From the NCBI RefSeq assembly GCF_013167455.1, contig NZ_CP038328.1: a DNA stretch of 64,000 nucleotides, one strand, 5' to 3'. The notes under the pieces were generated by a model. The model searched no databases. It was not told the DNA's origin and saw only the letters and a program-made list of their open reading frames with translations. Made by a program: the position numbers and the translations under genes. Positions 49,524 to 64,000 of this stretch are shown in pieces (positions within the stretch are counted from its first letter, which is position 1; each line of letters starts with the position of its first letter). The stretch is from Escherichia coli O157:H7 (GTDB lineage Bacteria > Pseudomonadota > Gammaproteobacteria > Enterobacterales > Enterobacteriaceae).

Positions 49524-50144
49524 ATGACCTTAGAATGGTGGTTTGCCTACCTACTGACATCAATCATTTTAAGCCTGTCGCCAGGCTCTGGTGCAATCAA
49601 CACTATGACCACCTCGCTCAACCACGGTTATCGCGGCGCGGTGGCGTCTATTGCCGGGCTTCAGACCGGACTGGCGATTCATATTGTGCTGGTTGGCGTG
49701 GGGTTGGGGACGCTATTTTCCCGCTCAGTGATTGCGTTTGAAGTGTTGAAGTGGGCAGGCGCGGCTTACTTGATTTGGCTGGGAATACAGCAATGGCGCG
49801 CCGCTGGCGCAATTGATCTTAAATCGCTGGCCTCTACTCAATCGCGTCGACATTTGTTCCAGCGCGCAGTTTTTGTGAATCTCACCAATCCCAAAAGTAT
49901 TGTGTTTCTGGCGGCGCTATTTCCGCAATTCATCATGCCGCAACAGCCGCAACTGATGCAGTATATCGTGCTCGGTGTCACCACTATTGTGGTCGATATT
50001 ATTGTGATGATCGGTTACGCCACCCTTGCTCAACGGATTGCTCTATGGATTAAAGGACCAAAGCAGATGAAGGCGCTGAATAAGATTTTCGGCTCGTTGT
50101 TTATGCTGGTGGGAGCGCTGTTAGCATCGGCGAGGCATGCGTGA
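49524..50144 (+). CDS. rhtB: LysE-family homoserine/homoserine-lactone exporter
   Basis: 206 aa [32 protein letters not shown]...; position next to pldB. Confidence 0.9.
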
Positions 50145-50149
50145 AAAAT

Positions 50150-50200
50150 AATGTCGGATGCGGCGTAAACGCCTTATCCGACTTACTCTGAAGACGCGTC
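50150..50200. repeat. REP element
   Basis: gtcggatgcggcgtaaacgccttatccgac. Confidence 0.7.
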
Positions 50201-50205
50201 TGGCA

Positions 50206-50826
50206 TTACCGCGAAATAATCAAATGAATGCCAAATCCGGCAAATAACGCCCCGGCAAAACCATCAATCCACTTCGCCAGACGTTGATAACCACGGCGCA
50301 TTTGCGGCAGGGCAAACAGGCTGGCCACCACAGTAAACCACGCCAGCGTTTCGACAATAATCAACGCGAAAATGCCCCAGCGCGCGGTAGTGCCAACGTT
50401 ATCACCGACAAACAATGAGAACACCGAGCCAAAGTAGATAATCGCTTTCGGATTAGCGAGATTGGTCAGTAAACCTTTCAGGAAACTGCGCCCACTTTTC
50501 GCCAGCTCGACCTGTGGCGCAGGTGCAGAAACCGCCTCTTTTTTCAGCGCGCCGCGCAGCATCTGGTAACCCATCCAGCAGAGATACAGGCCACCGCCAA
50601 CCATAATCAGCGTATGCAGCCAGGCCATTTTTTCGATAATCAAATGCAGGCCAAGCAACGCAATCCCTGCCCAAACCATAACGCCGCAGGTAATACCCAG
50701 CACGCCCATCATCGCTTCTTTACGGGAACGACTGACAGCGGTCTGAGAGACAAAAAAGAAATCGGGACCGGGACTCATAAGCGCCACAATGTGCACCATG
50801 GCGACGGTGAGAAATAACATCAACAT
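50206..50826 (-). CDS. rhtC: LysE-family threonine exporter
   Basis: 206 aa MLMLFLTVAMVHIVALMSPGPDFFFVSQTAVSRSRKE...; position next to recQ. Confidence 0.9.
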   Translation of the reverse strand: MLMLFLTVAMVHIVALMSPGPDFFFVSQTAVSRSRKEAMMGVLGITCGVMVWAGIALLGLHLIIEKMAWLHTLIMVGGGLYLCWMGYQMLRGALKKEAVSAPAPQVELAKSGRSFLKGLLTNLANPKAIIYFGSVFSLFVGDNVGTTARWGIFALIIVETLAWFTVVASLFALPQMRRGYQRLAKWIDGFAGALFAGFGIHLIISR

Positions 50827-50889
50827 ACATTTGACTCGCGGGGGAAACGTTTACGGAGTCTTCATCCTGGCACTTTTTTATGCTGCTGA

Positions 50890-52719
50890 CTACTCTTCGT
50901 CGTCGCCATCGACATGCGCACGAATCAGCGCCATAAACGGTTTACCAAAGCGTTCCAGCTTGCGCATCCCAACGCCGTTAACGCTGAGCATTTCGCTGGC
51001 GGTGATCGGCATCTGTTCAGCCATCTCAATCAAGGTTGCGTCGTTAAACACCACGTACGGCGGGACATTACTTTCATCGGCAATCGATTTACGCAGTTTG
51101 CGTAATTTGGCGAACAGTTTGCGATCATAGTTGCCGCCGAACGATTTCTGCATCGCTTTCGGTTTGAGCGCCACGATACGCGGCACGGCAAGTTGTAAAG
51201 AGGATTCGCCGCGCAGCACCGGGCGCGCGGCCTCTGTCAGTTGTAGGGCAGAATGCTGGGCAATATTTTGCGTCACCAGGCCGAGGTGAATCAGCTGGCG
51301 GATCACGCTCACCCAATGTTCATGGCTTTTATCACGGCCCATGCCATAGACTTTCAGTTTGTCATGACCATAGTCGCGGATACGCTGGTTATTAGCACCA
51401 CGAATCACTTCCACCACATAACCCATCCCAAACCGCTGATTCACACGACCAATGGTGGAAAGGGCAATCTGAGCATCGGTTGAACCGTCGTACTGTTTCG
51501 GCGGATCGAGGCAGATATCGCAGTTCCCGCACGGCTCCTGACGCCCTTCGCCAAAATAGTTCAGCAATACCAGACGACGGCAAGTTTGCGCTTCGGCAAA
51601 CGCGCCCATCGCATTGAGTTTGTGGCGCTCGATATCCTGCAACTGCCCCTGCGGCTTCTCTTCCAGACAACGGCGCAGCCACGCCATATCAGCTGGATCG
51701 TAAAACAACATCGCTTCCGCAGGCAGGCCATCACGCCCGGCGCGACCGGTTTCCTGATAATAGGATTCGATATTGCGCGGAATATCAAAGTGGACCACGA
51801 AGCGAACGTTTGGTTTATTGATGCCCATGCCGAACGCCACCGTCGCCACCACAATTTGCAGGTCATCGCGCTGGAATTTCTCCTGCACGTCGGCGCGGAC
51901 ATTATTTTCCAGCCCGGCATGATAGGCCGCCGCGCTAATACCCTTGCTTTGCAGGCGCGCAGCGGTGTCTTCTACTTTCGCCCGGCTGTTGCAGTAGATA
52001 ATGCCGGACTTACCGCGCTGTTCCTGCACGTAGCGCATCAACTGATCGAGCGGTTTGAATTTCTCCATCAGCATGTAGCGAATATTCGGACGGTCAAAAC
52101 TGCTGATTTGAATCAGCGGATCGTTCAGCCCCAGCAGGCGCACGATATCCTGGCGCGTGGTGTCGTCGGCTGTGGCGGTCAGCGCCATAAACGGCAGCGT
52201 CGGGAACCGCTGGCGCAACTGACCGAGCGCGGCATATTCCGGGCGGAAATCGTGGCCCCATTGGGAGATACAGTGCGCTTCATCAACGGCTAATAACACC
52301 GGATTCCAGTGCGCCAGATGCTCAAGAAAGTTATCCAGCATCAGGCGTTCCGGGGCGATATAAAGCAGACGAATTTGCCCGGTGCGGCAGCCTGTCATCA
52401 CTTCAAGTTGCTGTTCGCGGGTTTGCGTCGAGTTAAGGCACGCCGCCGCCACGCCGTTGGCTTGCAGTTGATCCACCTGATCTTTCATCAACGAAATCAG
52501 CGGTGAAACAACCACGGTAAGGCCGTTTAGCAATAAGGCAGGAATTTGATAGCAAAGGGATTTTCCGCCACCGGTGGGCATGACGACCAGGCAATCGCGA
52601 CCGGAAAGCACAGTGTCGATAATTTCTTCCTGGCCGGGGCGAAACTGTTGGTAGCCAAAGGTTTCTTGTAAAACCTGTTTAGCTCCGGACTCCAGATTCA
52701 ACACTTCCGCCTGCGCCAC
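50890..52719 (-). CDS. recQ: ATP-dependent DNA helicase RecQ
   Basis: (M)[33 protein letters not shown]... DEAH box, RQC zinc motif, HRDC tail; GTG start assumed (alternative GTG 6 nt upstream). Confidence 0.95.
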
Positions 52720-52741
52720 ATTCACCCCGATTGCCTGAAAT

Positions 52742-52768
52742 AAAAACAGGCGCTATTTTCAGCGCCTG
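52742..52768 (-). terminator. Rho-independent terminator of pldA
   Basis: caggcgct-gaaaata-agcgcctg hairpin followed by TTTTT on minus strand. Confidence 0.7.
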
Positions 52769-52851
52769 CGCGAGAAACTGCAATGCTTTTAGTCTCTGAG
52801 AGGGTAATCCTGGATGCTGGATTCCAGATTTGCCAACCACTCAACCGTTCA

Positions 52852-53721
52852 TCAAAACAAATCGTTTAGCATAACCCCCACACCGACACGGGTCTGGTTG
52901 AAGTTATAGTCGATGAGCGATTCGCCATAGCCGCTGTAAACCTGAGTATAAAGGCGCACATGTTTGGTGATCGGGTAACTTAAGCCTAACTCCGCGCCGC
53001 CGTAGCCGGTGTTCCAGTTGTACTGTCCTTTCGCACTGAGCACCGCATCACCGAGGTGATAGCCGATTTTAAGCTGGTAGTAACCCATATATTTGGTGAT
53101 ATCCGGGTTATCGTCAGTATTACCCACCACATACCACGGCTTCACTTCTACCAGCCAGTTACCGTTTTCTGCCATCAGGCGAGTATAAAGGCGGTTCCAG
53201 CTGCGGGAGGTCGGGTCTGAACGCCCGTTAGAGTCGTGGTTATACCCCATCTCCACATCGCGCAGCGTCCAACCTGCAAAACGGTAATCGGTGGCAAAAC
53301 CGAGGAACAATTGCGGTTCGTAGTTGGTTTCACGAAACGGTGAAGACTCTTCGCTATTGGACAGTTGCCACCAGGATTTTTGCGTATAAGACGCACCCAA
53401 CACCGAGTTCGGGCCTAAAATCCCACGCCACAGCGGAAATGCCAGGCTCAACTGAAACTTTACTTCATCCTTACGCGCATTTTCCGCCCAGTCGTAACTG
53501 GCAATCGCTTCTTTGTTCAGATCGCTGGTTTGGGTGTAGATGAGGTAGTTGGTGTCATAAGGATAGAGCGTGAACGGATTGTCATGCTCCTGCAGCATAT
53601 TGGCGATAATACTGCCACGCACCGCTGGCGCGTCATGCACCTCTTTCACCGTTGCCTCTTGTGCATATACTGCCATAGGCAACATAAACACCGGCAACAA
53701 CCAGCCCTGCAGAGTCCGCAT
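52852..53721 (-). CDS. pldA: Outer membrane phospholipase A
   Basis: 289 aa MRTLQGWLLPVFMLPMAVYAQEATVKEVHDAP... with signal peptide. Confidence 0.96.
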   Translation of the reverse strand: MRTLQGWLLPVFMLPMAVYAQEATVKEVHDAPAVRGSIIANMLQEHDNPFTLYPYDTNYLIYTQTSDLNKEAIASYDWAENARKDEVKFQLSLAFPLWRGILGPNSVLGASYTQKSWWQLSNSEESSPFRETNYEPQLFLGFATDYRFAGWTLRDVEMGYNHDSNGRSDPTSRSWNRLYTRLMAENGNWLVEVKPWYVVGNTDDNPDITKYMGYYQLKIGYHLGDAVLSAKGQYNWNTGYGGAELGLSYPITKHVRLYTQVYSGYGESLIDYNFNQTRVGVGVMLNDLF

Positions 53722-53885
53722 CGGTCGTGTTCTCCGTAACGAATTATTGATAAGGTGAATGTTTTTCTGCGGGGTATTTTACATACTTAACTCCATTGCC
53801 GTTAGTTATCCCTTCCTAAAGTAGAAACCAACAACAAAGAATCATAAAATCAACATTTCATTAACCAATGAAGTGTAAGGATGAT

Positions 53886-54353
53886 ATGTCTGCCGTACTG
53901 ACCGCTGAACAAGCCCTGAAATTAGTGGGTGAGATGTTTGTTTATCACATGCCATTTAACCGCGCATTGGGGATGGAACTGGAGCGTTACGAAAAAGAGT
54001 TCGCACAGCTGGCCTTTAAAAATCAGCCAATGATGGTGGGCAACTGGGCGCAAAGCATTTTGCACGGCGGGGTCATTGCGTCGGCGCTGGATGTCGCCGC
54101 CGGTCTGGTGTGCGTAGGAAGTACCTTAACCCGCCACGAAACCATCAGTGAAGATGAACTACGCCAGCGGCTATCGCGGATGGGGACCATTGATCTTCGC
54201 GTCGATTATCTGCGCCCAGGCAGAGGCGAGCGTTTTACTGCTACCAGTAGCCTGTTGCGTGCAGGCAATAAAGTCGCCGTCGCCCGCGTTGAATTACACA
54301 ATGAAGAACAGCTTTATATTGCCAGTGCCACCGCCACCTATATGGTAGGTTGA
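53886..54353 (+). CDS. yigI: Hotdog-fold thioesterase YigI
   Basis: [38 protein letters not shown]..., 155 aa. Confidence 0.9.
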
Positions 54354-54404
54354 AGACATAAAAGCAGGTAAACTGCTGTTACCAATTAAAAATGAGTATT
54401 CCCG

Positions 54405-55292
54405 ATGGATGCAAAACAAACGCGGCAGGGCGTATTACTCGCTCTTGCCGCTTATTTTATTTGGGGTATAGCCCCAGCGTACTTCAAGTTGATTTACTAC
54501 GTGCCCGCCGATGAGATCCTGACGCATCGCGTGATCTGGTCGTTTTTCTTTATGGTGGTGCTGATGAGCATTTGCCGCCAGTGGTCCTATTTAAAAACGC
54601 TGATTCAGACGCCACAGAAAATTTTTATGCTGGCAGTCTCTGCCGTGCTGATTGGTGGCAACTGGCTACTGTTTATCTGGGCGGTGAACAATCACCATAT
54701 GCTGGAAGCGAGCCTTGGTTACTTTATTAACCCGCTGGTGAACATTGTGCTGGGGATGATTTTCCTCGGCGAGCGATTCCGCCGGATGCAATGGCTGGCG
54801 GTGATTCTGGCGATATGTGGCGTGTTAGTCCAGCTGTGGACTTTTGGTTCGCTACCTATTATCGCGCTGGGGCTGGCATTTAGTTTTGCCTTCTACGGCC
54901 TGGTGCGCAAGAAGATTGCGGTAGAAGCACAAACCGGCATGTTAATTGAAACCATGTGGCTGCTGCCCGTGGCGGCGATTTACCTGTTTGCTATTGCCGA
55001 CAGCTCAACCAGCCATATGGGGCAAAACCCGATGTCGCTGAATTTACTGCTGATCGCCGCCGGTATTGTCACTACCGTACCGCTGTTGTGTTTTACCGCC
55101 GCTGCCACGCGCCTTCGTCTCTCAACGTTAGGCTTTTTCCAGTACATTGGCCCGACGCTGATGTTCCTGCTGGCTGTGACGTTTTATGGTGAAAAACCGG
55201 GTGCCGATAAGATGGTGACTTTCACCTTTATTTGGGTGGCGCTGGCAATTTTTGTGATGGATGCGATTTATACGCAGCGTAGAAAAAGTTAA
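54405..55292 (+). CDS. rarD: EamA/DMT-family transporter RarD
   Basis: 295 aa MDAKQTRQGVLLALAAYFIWGIAPAYFKLIYYVPADEILTHRV... Confidence 0.95.
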   Translation: MDAKQTRQGVLLALAAYFIWGIAPAYFKLIYYVPADEILTHRVIWSFFFMVVLMSICRQWSYLKTLIQTPQKIFMLAVSAVLIGGNWLLFIWAVNNHHMLEASLGYFINPLVNIVLGMIFLGERFRRMQWLAVILAICGVLVQLWTFGSLPIIALGLAFSFAFYGLVRKKIAVEAQTGMLIETMWLLPVAAIYLFAIADSSTSHMGQNPMSLNLLLIAAGIVTTVPLLCFTAAATRLRLSTLGFFQYIGPTLMFLLAVTFYGEKPGADKMVTFTFIWVALAIFVMDAIYTQRRKS

Positions 55293-55338
55293 GAATTAAC
55301 ATGGGTAGGCCGTTTAAAGAGCCTACCCACTGACTTAT

Positions 55339-55653
55339 TTATCTTTTTTTGAAAAAAATTAAGATAAGAAAAAGAACAATATTTGTTACAGGAAATCCCC
55401 CCAAAACTCCCCAGTACTTACTCCATCCTAGAGACATCGTATATCTACCAAGGATTTGACAAAACCCAAAACTTAACCCTATACCTATACTTCTTAAATT
55501 TAATGTCGTAGTCAGGCTTAAAATAAATAGAACAAGGATGGTAATAGCCCACCACAATAACCATGCCTTAACAAAATCAGATTTTTTGCTGTAAGGTTCT
55601 TTACCCAAGAACAACTGCCAAAAGTTACCATTTCCCATATAGAATCCATTCAC
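55339..55653 (-). CDS. Hypothetical small membrane protein (104 aa, about 3 predicted TM helices)
   Basis: Open frame in very AT-rich DNA where stops are frequent by chance; hydrophobic segments AWLLWWAITILVLFILSL, IGIGLSFGFCQILG, VTNIVLFLILIFF; no family assigned. Confidence 0.55.
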   Translation of the reverse strand: MNGFYMGNGNFWQLFLGKEPYSKKSDFVKAWLLWWAITILVLFILSLTTTLNLRSIGIGLSFGFCQILGRYTMSLGWSKYWGVLGGFPVTNIVLFLILIFFKKR

Positions 55654-55776
55654 CCAAGATATTGTTTATAGAATAAAAATACATTCCAATTATATTTAAT
55701 TAAAATATACCCCATCAATAAAAACTTACACACTCTAAATTACTACTGTATAGTTATCAATGCAAAGACTGCTATA

Positions 55777-55794
55777 TTGCATATATATATGCAA
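55777..55794. promoter_or_regulatory. Perfect 18-bp palindrome in divergent promoter region
   Basis: TTGCATATATATATGCAA is its own reverse complement; lies between the divergent 104-aa and 128-aa ORFs. Confidence 0.4.
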
Positions 55795-55853
55795 ACCACA
55801 TAATTCAGGTAATATATATTCAAAACAATTATATATATAAAACAATGTAAAAA

Positions 55854-56240
55854 ATGTTCAAATCATCCATCAGAAATATATTCTACCCATCCAAGCTTGA
55901 GCGTTTATCACGCTTTCAGTTCATAATCTATACATTAACATCATGGTCAATATTAATAACTTTGAATGATATCAACCTGGCTTTGAGTTTTATTCTGGTT
56001 ATTAATAATACCTATGTAAATATCAATATTGGAGCAAAAAGAATAAGAGATACTGGATGTAAGGCAATCTACTTTGTATTGATTTCATTGGGTTTGACAC
56101 TTTTTTCTATTATCTCTGCAGCAATTGAAGGGGTGAGATGTGAGTCATTAAGCGTCCAACTCAACGTGGCATGGATATTATTCACAACAATTATGTTATC
56201 TGCGATTCCCTCTGCTAAAATGTCGCTGTCAGCACACTAA
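55854..56240 (+). CDS. Hypothetical inner-membrane protein, DUF805(YhaH)-like (128 aa)
   Basis: ORF in AT-rich DNA; motifs LERLSRFQF and KRIRDTGCKA resemble the DUF805 signature (GRxxRKEYW ... RRLHDxxxSG) from memory; several TM segments. Confidence 0.6.
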   Translation: MFKSSIRNIFYPSKLERLSRFQFIIYTLTSWSILITLNDINLALSFILVINNTYVNINIGAKRIRDTGCKAIYFVLISLGLTLFSIISAAIEGVRCESLSVQLNVAWILFTTIMLSAIPSAKMSLSAH

Positions 56241-56264
56241 CTTACTCACAGCGACATCGTATAG

Positions 56265-56409
56265 TTACAGCCAGTTCTTGCGCTTAAAGTACAGATACGG
56301 TGCCAGGCCCGCGAGGATCATAAAGATAATCGCGCCTGGGTAGCCGAAACTCCACTTCAGTTCTGGCATAAACTCAAAGTTCATGCCATAGCTGGAGGCA
56401 ATCGGCGTA
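56265..56409 (-). repeat. Duplicated 3' end of corA (gene fragment; direct repeat of 57976-58120)
   Basis: About 145 bp nearly identical to the genuine corA 3' end; encodes ...[44 protein letters not shown] in frame; identity decays toward the inner edge. Confidence 0.9.
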
Positions 56410-56597
56410 GGAAAAAGTTTCCTAATCGGTAAATTCAATATTTTGTTATTAACAATGAGCAAGACCAATCATTAACGACGTTCTCTTCAGAGATGTAATG
56501 AAAAAATGTGAAGTGTACTTCTTTTTTAAATATTTTTTTACCCTAGCATTTGTTCTCAAATTGATATTGAGCTTAAATATAACCAAGGAAAATGTAA

Positions 56598-57446
56598 ATG
56601 AATAACACATTACTTCCATCAATTAATATTCCCTGTACACTTTTCGAAACTATTAGTTTATTTGATAATTATTCTGCTGATGATATGCAATATGGTGATA
56701 TGGTAGAACAAGATTTTCTCTCACTCGGCCTAAGCGATATCTCAGCAAAAGTTGATCCTTACAGACTTATTAAATACCATTTCCCTGGCCCAGGTTCTAT
56801 TAATGTTGCTTTTAGTGCCTCAAGTTCCGGAACAAAAATATCACAACGTGAATGCACTGATATTTTATTTGCAGAAATGAAAGAACTAGCAAAAATGTTT
56901 TCCTTTTTTGGACAATATAAAACACTTATCGAAGATCTGATTGAACATTTTAGATATGGAAATGGCAGCAATTTTCATAGCCAACAATTAAATTTATCTT
57001 TTCATGAAAAAATAAATAAATATGGTTATAATAGTCCAATACGAATAATCAAAGAATGTATCGAAAATGGCATTAATTCAACTCCCTCGACAGGATACCA
57101 ACCTCTTATCCTGCAAAGCATTAAAACCAAATTACTTTCATCAAGACTAAATAAATTTAATGACTTCGAGGACAGTTTTAATGGCTTAGGAATCAGTGTT
57201 CATGATATTTCAGCTCAAAAAATATCTCTTTTAAGTTTTCAAAAATACGCTATAGGATGGAGTGCAACAATTCATTTTGTAGCACAGGACCACTTCGGTC
57301 TTGATGTAACTGATATCAAAAACAAGACTTACAGCAAATATAGATTTTTTCGCATATGGTTCTTTTTACAACGGCATAAAGACTTTGCTTTCAAACCTTT
57401 TTTCACCAATTTTAACACTATCGAAAGAATCGAAAATTATCTATGA
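56598..57446 (+). CDS. Hypothetical protein, 282 aa, no signal peptide, no recognised family
   Basis: 849-nt ORF in about 30% GC DNA (estimated by eye), which is improbable by chance; AAGGA SD 9 nt upstream of ATG; stop overlaps next ORF start (ATGA). Confidence 0.8.
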   Translation: MNNTLLPSINIPCTLFETISLFDNYSADDMQYGDMVEQDFLSLGLSDISAKVDPYRLIKYHFPGPGSINVAFSASSSGTKISQRECTDILFAEMKELAKMFSFFGQYKTLIEDLIEHFRYGNGSNFHSQQLNLSFHEKINKYGYNSPIRIIKECIENGINSTPSTGYQPLILQSIKTKLLSSRLNKFNDFEDSFNGLGISVHDISAQKISLLSFQKYAIGWSATIHFVAQDHFGLDVTDIKNKTYSKYRFFRIWFFLQRHKDFAFKPFFTNFNTIERIENYL

Positions 57447-57934
57447 AAAGCAAACTCCAAAAAATTATATTATGTTTATTTCTTCTATGCTGCATCTATA
57501 ATTTATGGACATTGCGTCCTGTACAGATTTTGTATACATACTCTGATGCTGGCAATTCAGTCTTTCTGGTCGTTGATCATCTGCCATGGACTGACAGCGA
57601 TAAAATAAATTGGTATCTGAAGCATCAGAATGAAATTAAAAATCAACATCCCCTACCAGAAGGTAGTTGGCATACCTGGTATGTCATTGATATCGGTAAT
57701 GGCTTCACTGACTATAAAAAATATATCGAAGGGCCGTATGAAGATCTCTACTGTTTCCCGACAATTAAGAGCAATGATAATTGCATCACGAAAAATTACT
57801 TAATGGTTATTAATGAATACCCTTATCGTAACACTCATATTGGTATTAACGATTTTACTGAGTATCAATTAACACAAGAAAATAAAATAGAGCAAGTTTT
57901 CAATCCGCATAACTTTAAAAAAGACAATTTTTAG
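57443..57934 (+). CDS. Hypothetical membrane-anchored or secreted protein, 163 aa
   Basis: N-terminal K-rich then hydrophobic stretch (MKSKLQKIILCLFLLCCIYNLWTL) typical of signal peptide/anchor; translationally coupled to upstream ORF; ends 41 nt before convergent corA stop. Confidence 0.75.
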   Translation: MKSKLQKIILCLFLLCCIYNLWTLRPVQILYTYSDAGNSVFLVVDHLPWTDSDKINWYLKHQNEIKNQHPLPEGSWHTWYVIDIGNGFTDYKKYIEGPYEDLYCFPTIKSNDNCITKNYLMVINEYPYRNTHIGINDFTEYQLTQENKIEQVFNPHNFKKDNF

Positions 57935-57975
57935 AAATAAGCCGGATAAAAAAATAGCTTTATCCGGCACTCATA

Positions 57976-58926
57976 TTACAACCAGTTCTTCCGCTTAAAG
58001 TACAGATACGGTGCCAGGCCCGCGAGGATCATAAAGATAATCGCGCCTGGGTAGCCGAAACTCCACTTCAGTTCTGGCATAAACTCAAAGTTCATCCCGT
58101 AGCTGGAAGCAACCAGCGTTGGCGGCAGGAACACGACGGATACCACCGAGAAAATTTTGATGATGCGGTTCTGCTCGATGTTGATAAAACCCATTGCCGC
58201 CTGCATCAGGAAGTTCACCTTCTGGAACAGGGATTCGTTATGCGGCAGCAGGGATTCGATATCTCGCAGGATTTCACGCGCCTGCTCCAGTTGCCCACCC
58301 GGTAAGCGTGCTTTACGTACCAGGAAGTTGAGCGCGCGCTGGGTATCCATCAGACACAGGCGCACTTTCCAGCCGATATCTTCCAGTTCCGCCAGAGTGG
58401 AGAGCGCCTCGTCGTACTCATCGCCCTGATGCCCTTCCATAATCACCCGGCTCAATTGCTCCAGGTCGCTATAGATATTTTCAATTTCATCTGCCAACTG
58501 TTCGATTTTGGTTTCGAACAGATCCAGCAGCAACTCGTAGGCGTTACCGTCTACCATCGACTGGCTACGGGCACGCATACGATACAGACGAAAAGCGGGC
58601 AGTTCACGCTCACGCAGAGTAAACAGACGACCATCACGGATGGTAAATGCCACAGTGGAGTTACCGGCGTGATCTTCCGCATCTTCAAAGAAGAAGAAGG
58701 AGTGAATATGCAGGCCGTCATCGTCTTCAAAGAAACGTGCCGATGCTTCGATGTCTTCCAGTTCCGGGCGGGTTGCCAGGCTCTGGCCAAGTTCAGATTG
58801 TACGCGCAGTCGCTCGTCGTCGTCCGGTTCGACAAGATCAATCCATACTGCATTTACAAGGGGTTGTGACTCTTCGACTTCCAGCCGGGTCAGTCGGTTA
58901 TTTTCCAGTTGAAATGCGCTCAGCAT
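57976..58926 (-). CDS. corA: Magnesium/cobalt transporter CorA
   Basis: [43 protein letters not shown]... with [10 protein letters not shown] signature near C-terminus; 316 aa. Confidence 0.96.
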
Positions 58927-59295
58927 GACCGGGACTCCCAATGCTTAAAATATCGGACAGTTCGGTGGGCACACAGAAACAAATTGGGTTTCAGACCATT
59001 AAACAGCCTGACTCAGCGCGACGGGAAAAATTGAGGTCGCTGACAACCGCTAAGGCTATCAGCAAAAAGGGATAGCCTTAGGAGTTGATCCTGGATGACA
59101 GGATAGTGAGCCAGTATCTACTGGGTGTGTCCAAGGCGAATGTCCTCTTAGAGTGATCGTGCGCGCATGTTACGCCAGCAAAATTTTGCCGTCAACACGC
59201 AACAGAACACCACAGAACAATAGTTGAACTTCGCGCTTTTTGGTACTCGTCAAGGTCGCTAACAGGATAAAAAAATCCCACATCCAGGACCTATA

Positions 59296-60060
59296 ATGGC
59301 GCATCGGCTACTCATTGGTAAAGGAATGATCACCTTGAATCTCAAACGGATTTTTCTCGCCCTCACCTTACTTCCCTTGTTTGCTGTTGCCGCTGATGAT
59401 TGCGCACTCTCAGATCCAACGCTGACCGTACAGGCGTATACCGTTAATCCTCAAACAGAGCGGGTGAAAATGTACTGGCAAAAAGCCAATGGCGAAGCGT
59501 GGGGAACTTTACATGCTCTGCTGGCGGATATGAATAGTCAGGGTCAGGTGCAGATGGCGATGAACGGCGGCATCTATGATGAAAGCTATGCGCCGCTCGG
59601 TTTGTACATCGAAAACGGTCAGCAGAAGGTGGCGTTAAATCTCGCTTCAGGTGAAGGGAATTTCTTTATCCGTCCTGGCGGCGTGTTTTATGTCGCGGGA
59701 GATAAAGTCGGCATCGTTCGTCTGGATGCCTTCAAAACCAGTAAAGAGATTCAGTTTGCGGTGCAGTCAGGGCCAATGTTGATGGAAAACAGTGTAATTA
59801 ATCCGCGTATTCATCCCAACGTCGCCTCACGTAAAATTCGTAACGGTGTTGGAATTAATAAACATGGGAATGCCGTGTTTTTGTTGAGCCAGCAGGCGAC
59901 AAATTTTTATGATTTTGCCTGTTATGCCAAAGCGAAACTGAACGTTGAGCAGCTGCTTTATCTTGATGGCACGATTTCACATATGTATATGAAAGGCGGG
60001 GCAATCCCGTGGCAACGCTATCCTTTTGTCACCATGATTTCCGTCGAGCGGAAAGGTTAA
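59296..60060 (+). CDS. yigE: DUF2233-type periplasmic protein YigE
   Basis: 254 aa MAHRLLIGKGMITLNLKRIFLALTLLPLFAVAADDCALSDP... with signal peptide. Confidence 0.85.
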   Translation: MAHRLLIGKGMITLNLKRIFLALTLLPLFAVAADDCALSDPTLTVQAYTVNPQTERVKMYWQKANGEAWGTLHALLADMNSQGQVQMAMNGGIYDESYAPLGLYIENGQQKVALNLASGEGNFFIRPGGVFYVAGDKVGIVRLDAFKTSKEIQFAVQSGPMLMENSVINPRIHPNVASRKIRNGVGINKHGNAVFLLSQQATNFYDFACYAKAKLNVEQLLYLDGTISHMYMKGGAIPWQRYPFVTMISVERKG

Positions 60061-60142
60061 GCATTGTACACTCGAGGAGGCCAGACAAACTGGGGCTGGC
60101 TACACAGCTGGAAAATCATCAGATAAATGAAGGGAAACAAAA

Positions 60143-61045
60143 ATGAAAAAAACGCTCGCAACGTTATTTTTATTAACGTGTCTGGGATCATCATCCGCTT
60201 ATGCGGATAACGCTTTGATTTTACAAACTGATTTTAGCCTGAAAGATGGTGCCGTCTCGGCGATGAAAGGGGTCGCATTCGGTGTTGACCATAATCTTAA
60301 AATATTTGATTTAACACACGAAATTCCACCGTATAACATCTGGGAAGGCGCTTACCGCCTGTATCAGACCGCCAGTTACTGGCCGCAAGGTTCGGTATTT
60401 GTCAGTGTGGTCGATCCGGGCGTAGGCACTGACCGTAAATCGATAGTGCTGAAAACCAAAAACGGTCAATACTTCGTTTCACCGGATAACGGTACGCTCA
60501 CTTTGGTGGCGGAATCGCTGGGTATTGAGAGCGTCCGGGAAATCGACGAAAAAGCTAACCGCCTGAAAGGTTCTGAAAAGTCATATACCTTCCACGGTCG
60601 TGACGTGTATGCCTACACCGGTGCACGTCTGGCTTCCGGGGCGATCACGTTCGAGCAGGTGGGGCCTGAGCTTCCTGCAAAGGTTGTCGAACTTTCTTAT
60701 CAGAAAGCAAAAGCAACAAAAGGTGAAGTGAAGGGCAATATCCCGATTCTCGATATTCAGTACGGCAACGTCTGGAGCAATATCAGCGACGAGTTGCTGA
60801 ATCAGGCGGGGATCAAACTCAACGACACGTTGTGTGTGACCATTTCCGAAGGTTCCCGGCAAAAATACGCAGGGAAAATGCCGTATGTCGCAAGCTTCGG
60901 CGATGTGCCGGAAGGACAGCCGATGGTGTATCTGAACAGCTTATTGAATGTTTCCGTGGCGCTGAATATGGATAATTTCGCGCAGAAACATCAGGTTGCG
61001 TCTGGTGCTGACTGGAATATTGATGTGAAGAAATGTGATAAGTAA
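60143..61045 (+). CDS. SAM hydroxide adenosyltransferase-like (DUF62 / chlorinase-fluorinase fold) protein with N-terminal signal peptide
   Basis: 300 aa; signal peptide MKKTLATLFLLTCLGSSSAYA then family motifs QTDFSLKDGAVSAMKGV, VVDPGVGTDRKS, FVSPDNGTLTLV, YGNVWSNISDELLNQAGI (recalled from fluorinase/SalL-type enzymes). Confidence 0.75.
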   Translation: MKKTLATLFLLTCLGSSSAYADNALILQTDFSLKDGAVSAMKGVAFGVDHNLKIFDLTHEIPPYNIWEGAYRLYQTASYWPQGSVFVSVVDPGVGTDRKSIVLKTKNGQYFVSPDNGTLTLVAESLGIESVREIDEKANRLKGSEKSYTFHGRDVYAYTGARLASGAITFEQVGPELPAKVVELSYQKAKATKGEVKGNIPILDIQYGNVWSNISDELLNQAGIKLNDTLCVTISEGSRQKYAGKMPYVASFGDVPEGQPMVYLNSLLNVSVALNMDNFAQKHQVASGADWNIDVKKCDK

Positions 61046-61057
61046 GGTGCTGATGCC

Positions 61058-61082
61058 GGATGCGGTGTGGCGCACCGCATCC
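61058..61082. terminator. Stem-loop between convergent DUF62-like gene and uvrD
   Basis: ggatgcggtg-tggcg-caccgcatcc perfect 10-bp inverted repeat; no clear T-run, may be REP-like. Confidence 0.5.
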
Positions 61083-61089
61083 CGCAACG

Positions 61090-63252
61090 TTATACCGTCT
61101 CCAGCCGGGCGTATGCCGCCACCAGCCATTTAATACCCTGGCCCTGGAATGCCACCTGCAAACGGCTATGCTCGCCGCTGCCTTCCATATTGACGATAGT
61201 GCCTTCACCAAACTTAGCGTGGCGTACACGCTGGCCGAGCTTGTAGCCGCTGTCGTTCTCGACCATCGGCGTACCCATACGCTGATGGCTGACCGGGCGG
61301 CTTACCGTGGCGCGCAGGCGCACCTCTTCCACACACTCTTCCGGCAACTCACCGATAAAGCGCGACGGGCGATGGTAAACCTCTTTGCCATACAGACGGC
61401 GAGTTTCCGCGTAGGTCAGCGTCAGTTTCTGCATCGCGCGGGTTACACCAACGTAGGCCAGACGGCGTTCTTCTTCCAGACGTCCGCCTTCATCCAGCGA
61501 CATCTGGCTTGGGAACATGCCCTCTTCCATACCGACGATAAACACCTGCGGGAACTCCAGGCCTTTCGCCGAGTGCAGCGTCATCAACTGCACTGCATCC
61601 TGCCAGGTATCCGCCTGCCCCTCGCCCGCTTCCAGCGCCGCATGGGAGAGGAACGCCTGCAGCGGCATTAAATCTTCGTCTTCTTCGTTGTAGCTGAATT
61701 GGCGCGTTGCCGTCACTAGTTCCTCTAAGTTTTCGATACGCGTCTGACCTTTTTCGCCCTTCTCCTGCTCGTACATGGTACGCAGGCCGGAGTCTTTAAT
61801 TACCCGGTCAGTCTGTACATGCAGCGGCATATCGGCAGTTTCCTGCGCTAAGGCGTCGATCAGTTCCATAAACCGCTGTAAGGCGCTGGCAGCACGTCCG
61901 GCGAGGGCTTTTTCCTGCAACAGTTCACGACATGCCTGCCAGAGTGTTAACTGGCGATCGCGCGATGTCTGACGTACCACGTCCAGCGTCCGGTCACCAA
62001 TACCCCGCGTTGGCGTATTCACCACACGCTCAAAGGCCGCGTCGTCGTTGCGGTTGGCAATCAGGCGCAGATACGAGAGCGCATCTTTGATTTCCTGGCG
62101 TTCGAAGAAGCGCATCCCGCCGTAAATACGGTACGGCATACTGGCCTGCAATAACGCCTCTTCGAGCACCCGCGACTGGGCGTTGCTGCGGTAGAGAATG
62201 GCGCACTCGGCGAGCGCCCCACCGTTGTCCTGCCAGGTTTTGATGCGGTTAACGACAAAACGCGCTTCATCGAGTTCGTTAAAAGCGCAATAGAGGGAAA
62301 TAGGCTCACCGTCCGCGCCATCGGTCCACAGTTTTTTACCCAGACGCCCGTTGTTGTTTTCAATCAGGGCGTTCGCGGCGCTCAGAATGTTACTGGTAGA
62401 ACGATAGTTCTGCTCCAGACGGATAGTTTCGGCACCGGGGAAATCATTGAGGAAACGCTGAATATTCTCCACCTGCGCCCCGCGCCAGCCGTAGATTGAC
62501 TGGTCGTCATCACCGACGATCATCACTTTGCCGGTGTCGCCCGCCAGCAGGCGGATCCACGCGTACTGAATGTTGTTGGTATCCTGGAATTCGTCCACCA
62601 GGATGTTGGTAAAACGTTCGCGGTAGTGTTGCAGGATATGCGGCTTGTTAAGCCACAACTCGTGAGCGCGCAGCAGCAGCTCGGCGAAGTCCACCAGGCC
62701 TGCACGATCGCACGCTTCCTGATACGCCTGATACACCTTCTGCCAGGTCTGCTCCACCGGATTACCGTAGCTTTGAATATGATGCGGACGCAGGCCTTCA
62801 TCTTTCTGGCTGTTGATGTACCACATTGCCTGGCGCGGCGGCCACTGCTTCTCGTCGAGGTTCATGGCTTTGATCAGACGCTTAAGCAGGCGTAGCTGGT
62901 CTTCGCTATCGAGGATCTGGAAATCCTGCGGCAGATTGGCGTCCATATGGTGCGCACGCAGCAAACGGTGCGCCAGCCCGTGGAAGGTGCCGACCCACAT
63001 GCCGCCCTGGCTGGTGCCCATCAGTTGCCCGATACGATGACGCATCTCCGCCGCCGCTTTGTTGGTAAACGTCACAGCCATAATCGAGTATGGCGAGCAG
63101 TTTTCCACGCTCATCAGCCAGGCGATACGATGCACCAGTACGCGCGTCTTACCACTGCCCGCGCCCGCCAGCACCAGAAGGTTGCTGCGCGGCGCGGCCA
63201 CCGCTTCGCGCTGTTTGTCATTAAGGCTGTCGAGCAGGTAAGAAACGTCCAT
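61090..63252 (-). CDS. uvrD: DNA helicase II
   Basis: MDVSYLLDSLNDKQREAVAAPRSNLLVLAGAGSGKTRVLVHRIAWL..., 720 aa from internal ATG. Confidence 0.97.
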   Translation of the reverse strand: MDVSYLLDSLNDKQREAVAAPRSNLLVLAGAGSGKTRVLVHRIAWLMSVENCSPYSIMAVTFTNKAAAEMRHRIGQLMGTSQGGMWVGTFHGLAHRLLRAHHMDANLPQDFQILDSEDQLRLLKRLIKAMNLDEKQWPPRQAMWYINSQKDEGLRPHHIQSYGNPVEQTWQKVYQAYQEACDRAGLVDFAELLLRAHELWLNKPHILQHYRERFTNILVDEFQDTNNIQYAWIRLLAGDTGKVMIVGDDDQSIYGWRGAQVENIQRFLNDFPGAETIRLEQNYRSTSNILSAANALIENNNGRLGKKLWTDGADGEPISLYCAFNELDEARFVVNRIKTWQDNGGALAECAILYRSNAQSRVLEEALLQASMPYRIYGGMRFFERQEIKDALSYLRLIANRNDDAAFERVVNTPTRGIGDRTLDVVRQTSRDRQLTLWQACRELLQEKALAGRAASALQRFMELIDALAQETADMPLHVQTDRVIKDSGLRTMYEQEKGEKGQTRIENLEELVTATRQFSYNEEDEDLMPLQAFLSHAALEAGEGQADTWQDAVQLMTLHSAKGLEFPQVFIVGMEEGMFPSQMSLDEGGRLEEERRLAYVGVTRAMQKLTLTYAETRRLYGKEVYHRPSRFIGELPEECVEEVRLRATVSRPVSHQRMGTPMVENDSGYKLGQRVRHAKFGEGTIVNMEGSGEHSRLQVAFQGQGIKWLVAAYARLETV

Positions 63253-63308
63253 TGGCACCGCCGCGTAAAAATAGGTTGGGCGGAGAAGCGCAACGCCCTC
63301 CGCCAAAA

Positions 63309-63328
63309 AGCTGGGTATATATACAGAT
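63309..63328 (-). promoter_or_regulatory. LexA (SOS) box of uvrD
   Basis: Minus strand ATCTGTATATATACCCAGCT, CTG-N10-CAG, 57 bp upstream of uvrD start. Confidence 0.85.
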
Positions 63329-63335
63329 TTGCTGA

Positions 63336-64000
63336 TTATATCAGCGAGGTCAGAGATGCCAACCGGGAAATTTCCAGATGCGGGAGTAAACGGCTATCCC
63401 AGGTTTGCATCAGATCGCCATTTTCCGGTCTGATCCAACAGGCCTGCATTCCGCTGCGAATTGCCCCACCCACGTCAGTGGTGAGATCGTCACCTACATG
63501 TAAGATCTCGCCGATCGGCACGTTGAGTTTTTCCGCCGCCAGGAAGTACATATCGCTGAACGGTTTCGAGCGCCCGTGCGGGCCAGCGCGCAGCACAAAC
63601 TCAAAATAATCCCCCAAACCAAACAGTTCCGGCTGAGCGTTACCGTTGGTGATCGCCACCAGCGGCCATTTCTTCGCCAGCTGTTTTAAGGTGTCGTGGG
63701 TTTGCTGCGGGACGTCGATCCTGCTGCGCCATTTAGCAAAGTTGATCATTGCCGCGTGTGCGCCTGCACTGGCTTCTTCCGCGCTCAATCCGGCGTCAAG
63801 CATCGCTTGTTCTATTGAGCGAAAACGCCAGCGCGTCACGTCGTGATAAATCTCGGGTTCCGCTTCCCGTACCGCCTGGCGCAGGCGTTGCAGATCTTCA
63901 TTCTGGAAGCTGCGCAGCGCCGGATGGTAATTTTGCACAAAGGTAAGCGCCTCCTGCTCGGTGCGCAAAATCACCGGACGGTTATCGTAAAGGGTATCAT
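63336..64000 (-). CDS. yigB: HAD-family phosphatase YigB (C-terminal part; start lies beyond window end)
   Basis: In-frame translation ...[34 protein letters not shown]...; open to the window edge. Confidence 0.85.

Follow-up and report, generated by a model that had tools for sequence, protein, structure and literature searches.

Why does a second, displaced copy of the 3' end of corA stand beside an AT-rich pair of genes in Escherichia coli O157:H7, and what do the two genes do? Here, we analyze the rarD-corA interval in a 64,000-nucleotide (nt) stretch of that genome (contig NZ_CP038328.1 of RefSeq assembly GCF_013167455.1), referred to below as the window. We conclude that the cassette is probably an orphan interbacterial effector-immunity pair, made of a DUF3289 toxin and a DUF943 immunity protein, with the duplicated corA end as a scar of recombination. 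E. coli O157:H7 genomes match the window at 100% identity, and in them RefSeq gives the two products DUF3289/YPO3983-family and DUF943 names.

The cassette beside corA

Two open reading frames (ORFs), at 56598-57446 (282 amino acids [aa]) and 57443-57934 (163 aa), make up the cassette and are translationally coupled through an ATGA overlap (57443-57446). They are bracketed by an intact corA (57976-58926, minus strand in the RefSeq annotation; the mechanical ORF extends to 58941) and, about 1.7 kb away from it, a copy of the terminal 147 nt of corA (56265-56411; a partial CorA pseudogene in the RefSeq annotation), which is 95% identical to 57976-58122, a similarity far above chance expectation. 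GC content is 0.31 in the effector gene, 0.33 in the immunity gene, and 0.27 in the 186 nt upstream, compared with 0.51 for the whole window and 0.51-0.52 for rarD and corA. A first-pass annotation, made from the letters of the window, had described this bracketed, AT-rich cassette, and our coordinates, composition, and repeat identity agree with it. Two of its details needed revision. The repeat, given as 145 bp, is real, but it is 2 nt longer, and its end is not clean, running instead into a relic of rarD (rarD'). The segment described as AT-rich does have a low GC content, but the tract is larger, starting at the rarD stop (55293) and including a separate variable segment (55293-56264). As had also been noted, there is no integrase or transposase ORF between rarD and corA, whether judged by ORFs, family search, or RefSeq annotation.

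Identity of the two proteins

Neither protein had been recognized in the first-pass annotation, but both fall in named, published families. The effector matched PF11692 (DUF3289) over residues 10-278 (independent E value, 2.1e-84) and NCBIfam TIGR03034 (YPO3983 family) with 439 bits (cut-off, 156), and it almost certainly belongs to this DUF3289/YPO3983 toxin family. It has a single Pfam domain and no signal peptide. Across 30 stand-alone and 28 fused homologs, a C-terminal motif, (Q)DHFGLDxxD ... FRxWFxLQR ... KPF, is invariant, and it is kept in the window effector as QDHFGLDxxD...WFxLQR...KPF (D231, H232, F233, G234, D239, W254, Q258, P267, and F268). The second protein matched DUF943 (E, 2e-26); residues 2-23 are an N-terminal transmembrane helix, and a beta-rich domain contains two invariant cysteines (C104 and C114). 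The earlier guess of a soluble toxin followed by a membrane-anchored immunity partner was thus a good one. The lack of a signal peptide on the effector, together with the helix and cysteines of the DUF943 protein, is consistent with action in the periplasm.

Both proteins also match, by fold, the two chains of one solved effector-immunity complex. A PDB sequence search with the effector alone gave a weak C-terminal match (E, 9e-6), and profile and fold searches were needed; the DUF3289 family profile found the BtpeA chain at an E value of 1e-20, with DHFGLD..D ... FRxWFxLQ ... KPF aligned to BtpeA.

A search of 1.84 billion representative proteins (E <= 0.001) returned 472 DUF3289 relatives in three groups: stand-alone proteins of ~280 aa, proteins of ~400-450 aa with an N-terminal extension, and proteins of 600-1450 aa that match query residues ~85-275 only. 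PAAR was present in 9 and Hcp in 1 of the longer relatives (n = 28), and others bear M23, PG_binding_1, SH3, M14, or a glycoside-hydrolase-like domain; such partners fit a toxin of the cell wall that is frequently carried on the spike of a type VI secretion system (T6SS). The stand-alone proteins are ~35-40% identical to the PAAR-fused ones, and the stand-alone effector carries an extra conserved N-terminal stretch of ~85 residues.

Gene pairing was scanned in one genome per species (398 relatives; 73 loci kept), and a DUF943 gene directly followed DUF3289 in 72 of the 73 loci. Going by record titles, nearly all were from Enterobacterales, with a few metagenome bins labelled otherwise; two of the loci, on 98%-identical E. 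coli-like contigs in metagenome bins (L009 and L010), look mis-binned. Tandem arrays of the pair, runs of orphan DUF943 genes, and truncated DUF3289 3' ends followed by DUF943 were frequent, as is typical of polymorphic toxin loci. Upstream of ten loci, the genes were unrelated and mostly housekeeping (glgP, zntA, ilvY, yicC, and dcrB), with one P4-family primase and one gene without a family match. The E. coli pair is an orphan, as in the Aeromonas case cited below.

Arrays reached about seven pairs in Rosenbergiella and Tatumella, and arrays or orphan DUF943 runs occupied many unrelated chromosomal sites (Enterobacter sp. locus L007, 6499-9319; L029, L035, L047, and others). At a Salmonella enterica subsp. 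diarizonae locus (L060, 6088-6908), tblastn matched DUF3289 in two segments that overlap (residues 8-185 and 167-281), which suggests a frameshifted toxin gene beside an intact DUF943 gene.

Function and delivery

Relatives of the pair have been characterized. In Yersinia pseudotuberculosis, a T6SS operon encodes a PAAR-DUF3289 protein whose toxicity to E. coli is seen only in the periplasm, with rounding of the cells; its DUF943 partner, which has an N-terminal transmembrane helix and a periplasmic bulk, neutralizes it, and Foldseek linked the toxin to PaeM, a homolog of colicin M (PMC11148199). In Aeromonas jandaei, an orphan DUF3289 protein was found in the T6SS-dependent secretome and formed an effector-immunity pair in competition assays (PMC12135965), and DUF3289 and DUF943 clusters co-occur in Klebsiella (PMC12469244).

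By analogy, the E. coli toxin would act on the cell envelope from the periplasm and be harmless in the cytoplasm of the producer. It would most likely cleave a peptidoglycan lipid precursor, as proposed for relatives, although our literature search found no demonstration of lipid II cleavage by any DUF3289 protein; we give a colicin M-like lipid II target an even chance. The DUF943 protein would be anchored in the inner membrane, its periplasmic domain blocking the incoming toxin. Delivery would most likely be by a T6SS encoded elsewhere in the genome, and we lean, on balance, toward that route in E. coli; T6SS dependence is extrapolated from the relatives, because the pair has no T6SS gene nearby and the effector no delivery domain.

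Several observations weigh against an active, T6SS-delivered pair in this strain. No T6SS gene is annotated within 7 kb of the pair, and Pfam found no PAAR, Hcp, VgrG, or known delivery domain in the effector. A promoter scan of the region upstream of the operon (56433-56597) gave no convincing consensus sigma-70 site, and we found no usable expression evidence for the pair. The T6SS-2 cluster of O157:H7, elsewhere in the genome, is reported to be degenerating, with a 28-bp insertion in tssM and broken effectors (PMC12981562, 2026). The same study saw no T6SS-dependent killing of K-12 MG1655 by O157:H7, and MG1655 is without the DUF943 immunity gene of the pair. The corA-linked pair is absent from the effector map of that study and from a 2020 in-silico effector inventory of enterohemorrhagic E. 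coli (EHEC). The O157:H7 effector nevertheless retains all invariant residues; it may be undeliverable under the conditions tested, and the immunity gene could protect against carriers with a working T6SS, which may now be the main role of the pair in O157:H7.

These points bear on an alternative that we consider unlikely, though well short of negligible: a real toxin-immunity pair whose toxin leaves the cell independently of a T6SS, for example released like a bacteriocin through lysis or vesicles, or of which only the immunity gene matters in most E. coli, against T6SS-armed neighbors. It would account for an orphan pair without secretion genes nearby, for its intactness in O157:H7 despite a T6SS reported as degenerate, and for the common orphan DUF943 arrays without toxin genes; the toxin is also weakly colicin M-like, and toxins of the colicin M class are released bacteriocins. 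It fits poorly with the T6SS-dependent secretion of the orphan DUF3289 effector of Aeromonas (PMC12135965), with the retention of every invariant residue by the effector gene, and with the effector itself, in which no receptor-binding or translocation domain is evident outside DUF3289. Nor is there a lysis gene near the operon. Colicin-type SOS control was considered and dropped: a LexA-box scan gave no site near the operon, and sites were no more frequent than expected by chance.

A two-gene, translationally coupled, AT-rich, and variably present cassette could also be an intracellular toxin-antitoxin or anti-phage (abortive infection) module, and the first-pass annotation had offered a small defense module as one of its suggestions. 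PADLOC returned 0 families at E <= 1 for the four ORFs between rarD and corA, however. The membrane anchor, periplasmic domain, and conserved cysteines of the second protein also speak against it, as do the match of both proteins to the crystal structure of a T6SS effector-immunity complex, the PAAR or Hcp fusions among homologs, and the published toxicity of a relative, which needs periplasmic export (PMC11148199). We regard such a module as highly improbable and retain the interbacterial effector-immunity pair.

Locus types and distribution in E. coli

Four types of rarD-corA locus were distinguished in E. coli. Type K (e.g., K-12) is rarD-yigG-yigF-corA. Type KC (e.g., strain VTB96816v) has, in addition, corA' (147 nt)-DUF3289-DUF943 inserted before corA. 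The O157-type, that of the window, resembles KC, with yigG-yigF replaced by a different AT-rich segment. Type C (e.g., GTEN_97) has rarD, a 5' remnant of yigG, and DUF3289-DUF943-corA, with no corA'. Junction-specific searches of 5426 complete E. coli genomes found the corA'-cassette junction (KC plus O157-type) in 1709, among them 1407 of the O157-type, and the C junction in 931; yigF-corA was uninterrupted (K) in 2721. The cassette was present in 2632 of the 5426 genomes in total, about half. A presence/absence polymorphism with a breakpoint at the corA repeat, which the first-pass annotation had suggested looking for, is therefore real, and the four locus types have shared breakpoints.

The last ~10 nt of rarD diverge between locus types, and the BLAST alignment ends ~8-11 nt before the rarD stop. 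In VTB96816v, corA' is contiguous with yigG-yigF, the same as the K-12 arrangement. The corA'-cassette junction is identical in KC- and O157-type genomes and therefore arose once. In the C-type, the join of the cassette to the yigG remnant (L002, 3239-3241) and the end of the rarD' relic (56428-56432, a putative old rarD stop) are at most 2 nt apart. The simplest reading is that the C-type locus is a deletion derivative of the composite, although that reading does not account for the coincidence of its endpoint with the end of the relic.

The locus is recombinationally active in other ways too. When the O157-type and C-type alleles are compared, effector codons 1-240 show 82-92% identity and the stretch from codon 241 through the immunity gene 97-100%, with the switch at ~57317, inside the DUF3289 gene; the effectors differ by 15% and the immunity proteins by 2.5% at the protein level.

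E. coli BL21-AI showed a non-K-type pattern (73% coverage, two corA-end places) and probably carries a composite locus. BL21 was the host in which Yersinia DUF3289 toxicity was shown (PMC11148199); if the composite is real, the resident DUF943 gene is not cross-protective or is not expressed.

A further observation concerns plasmids. The last 98 nt of the cassette (57878-57975; the DUF943 3' end and the hairpin) have 96.9%-identical counterparts on IncHI1 plasmid R27 (L082, NC_002305.1, 4001-5257), on pHCM1, and on some 50 further conjugative plasmids of Salmonella and E. coli. On these plasmids, the stretch directly precedes a plasmid-borne corA-ysgD copy, which indicates that the plasmids captured a chromosomal piece of a cassette-type E. 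coli. These plasmids share about 1 kb of homology with the chromosomal corA locus.

Origin of the corA repeat

The sequence beside the corA fragment identifies its partner. The best match of 56402-56432 elsewhere in the window is the 3' end of rarD (score reached by 8 of 5000 shuffles), as seen in the junction GCGTAGGAAAAAGTT and the rarD 3' end at 55278-55291, GCGTAGAAAAAGTT. The relic is in the rarD frame and ends at a TAA (56430-56432), and (C)AGCGT is common to corA and rarD at the join (microhomology). At only ~15 nt, the relic in E. coli is short, a point against the recombination model proposed below.

Atlantibacter subterranea has a more extensive counterpart: rarD, yigG-like and yigF-like genes, corA' (last 264 nt) joined to rarD' (last 198 nt, with its own C-terminus), DUF3289, DUF943, and corA. 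This junction, which has different breakpoints, is independent of the one in E. coli. In Salmonella enterica subspp. houtenae, arizonae, and diarizonae, the order is rarD-DUF3289-DUF943-corA and there is no repeat; the two genes are 72% and 70% identical to those of E. coli at the nucleotide level, compared with 81-88% for rarD, yigI, and corA, and the pair has a GC content of 0.38-0.40. The pair thus occupies the rarD-corA site in Salmonella and Atlantibacter too, at ~70% nucleotide identity and AT-rich there as well, so that its composition, read earlier as a sign of horizontal acquisition, does not mark a recent arrival.

We propose that the rarD-corA interval held two old alternative alleles, the yigG-yigF-type genes or the toxin pair, which would have been stacked in an E. 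coli ancestor by one homologous crossover in a flank gene and one illegitimate, microhomology-level join, which would connect a site ~150 nt short of the corA stop with one ~15 nt short of the rarD stop. A circularized fragment and a single crossover would yield the same product, and either allele could have been the recipient. The 147-nt direct repeat would be long enough for RecA-dependent deletion of the pair, giving back a K-type locus. With good confidence, we read the corA repeat as the scar of such additive, homology-anchored illegitimate recombination between alternative alleles and not as the footprint of a mobile element. Mechanistic novelty is confined to this corA'-rarD' allele stacking, seen twice independently.

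The first-pass annotation had taken the repeat for a target-site duplication left by site-specific or homology-driven replacement. A direct repeat of a gene 3' end around AT-rich cargo is indeed the classical pattern of an integrative element that supplies a replacement gene end, its integrase being lost later (cf. phages 21 and e14 at icd), and the cassette-side corA end has synonymous variants and a downstream hairpin of its own. The intact corA end differs by two synonymous changes (TAC GGG versus TAT GGC), and the TAC GGG variants recur in each of the three E. coli loci with the cassette that were compared, one genome for each type; the hairpin (57941-57968) goes with this corA end, and a related one follows corA in Salmonella. 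Against an element stand the absence of an integrase from the four E. coli locus types, Salmonella, and Atlantibacter and the many unrelated sites without corA that the pair occupies elsewhere. Moreover, the breakpoints are not the same in E. coli and Atlantibacter, the junction partner is rarD, the gene across the interval, and Salmonella has the pair at this site without any repeat. This explanation is largely refuted and, in our estimate, very improbable, and the scar of allele stacking is preferred.

Features of the locus

Feature coordinates are given in Table 1. Annotated neighbors within ±7 kb (RefSeq) are recQ, pldA, yigI, rarD, corA, ysgD, yigE, a gene for an S-adenosylmethionine (SAM) hydrolase, and uvrD. 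The yigG-like ORF of the left segment is 29% identical to YigG (E, 3e-5) and matches NF008474 (E, 5.5e-6). An AAGGA (56585-56589) lies 9 nt ahead of the effector ATG. A search of 50000-64000 against Rfam gave no match and hence no riboswitch or small RNA explanation.

Table 1. Features between rarD and corA in the window
Feature	Position	Strand	Basis
rarD, EamA-family transporter; left conserved flank	54405-55292	+	ORF and RefSeq annotation
Left AT-rich variable segment, GC 0.32, in place of K-12 yigG-yigF	55293-56264		ORFs, composition, locus comparison
Small membrane-protein ORF in left segment; 99 aa in RefSeq	55339-55653	-	ORF and RefSeq
Divergent yigG-like ORF in left segment, unannotated	55854-56240	+	Similarity to YigG
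corA' pseudogene copy (last 147 nt), resident copy	56265-56411	-	95% identity; RefSeq partial CorA; joined to yigF-side flank in KC-type genomes
corA'/rarD' junction	56405-56432	+	Match to rarD 3' end
Operon upstream region, GC 0.27	56433-56597	+	Composition; homologous stretch begins at 56429 in C-type genomes
Effector, stand-alone DUF3289/YPO3983-family, 282 aa	56598-57446	+	
Immunity protein, DUF943, 163 aa	57443-57934	+	
GC-rich hairpin, GCCGGATAAA...TTTATCCGGC, terminator-like, between convergent DUF943 and corA	57941-57968		
Intact corA; 57976-58122 is the second repeat copy	57976-58926	-	ORF and RefSeq

The SAM hydrolase gene (60143-61045, plus strand; 300 aa, SAM hydrolase/halogenase family) lies between yigE and uvrD. 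It was found in the O157-, KC-, and C-type loci examined but not in the K-12-type locus, which makes it a further presence/absence polymorphism, 2 kb from that of the cassette.

Significance

What is probably an intact cell-wall toxin-immunity pair sits beside corA in about half of the E. coli genomes sequenced, O157:H7 and apparently B strains among them, and EHEC T6SS effector inventories seem to have missed it. Were the pair active, carriers and noncarriers such as K-12 would be mutually incompatible in contact-dependent competition, which is relevant to gut colonization and to competition experiments with K-12 prey. The locus is a clean, datable example of the gain of an orphan effector-immunity pair without mobile-element machinery, and it illustrates that persistent AT-richness need not signal recent acquisition.

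More speculatively, the rarD-corA interval might be a long-lived, trans-species balanced polymorphism and the pair a kin-discrimination (greenbeard-like) locus, with recurrent, recombinase-free corA'-rarD' stacking adding pairs that are later lost via the repeat, and the stand-alone DUF3289 protein, with its N-terminal ~85 residues, might use an undescribed loading or delivery route. We hold this wider picture to be doubtful.

Comparison with known systems

The function of the family was published in 2024-2025 and the structure of a complex became available in 2025; within this family, the E. coli pair is a new, uncharacterized, and very common orphan member. T6EC1-T6IC1 of Y. pseudotuberculosis (Mol Syst Biol 2024, PMC11148199) has the same two Pfam families in the same order, with the same immunity topology. 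T6EC1, however, is PAAR fused and encoded in a T6SS operon, whereas its E. coli counterpart is an orphan without PAAR. The A. jandaei effector (PLoS Biol 2025, PMC12135965) is, like that of E. coli, a stand-alone orphan DUF3289 protein with a downstream immunity gene, but its immunity protein has 95 aa and three transmembrane helices and is not a DUF943 protein. Aeromonas also belongs to another bacterial order than E. coli.

BtpeA-BtpiA (Bfe5 and its immunity protein; Bacteroides fragilis T6SS complex; PDB 9JDI and 9JG8/9JG9) is 12-21% identical in sequence to the E. coli pair. BtpeA has 608 residues, with the toxin as its C-terminal domain, and is part of the Bacteroidota T6SS spike complex, whereas the E. 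coli effector is a stand-alone protein of 282 aa, with the extra N-terminal residues, far from T6SS genes. Compared with the colicin M class (colicin M, PaeM, pectocin M1, and syringacin M, with the immunity protein Cmi), the E. coli effector is without a TonB box or receptor-binding domain, and its DHFGLDxxD is spaced differently from the catalytic motif DxYDx5HR of colicin M in a comparison by eye.

For the repeat, the nearest likeness is icd/icdC at the attachment site of e14 and phage 21, where foreign DNA lies between an intact gene and a displaced copy of its 3' end. An integrase acting at a fixed core produces that duplication; the rarD-corA locus, in contrast, has no integrase, its junction partner is the 3' end of rarD, and its breakpoints differ between genera.

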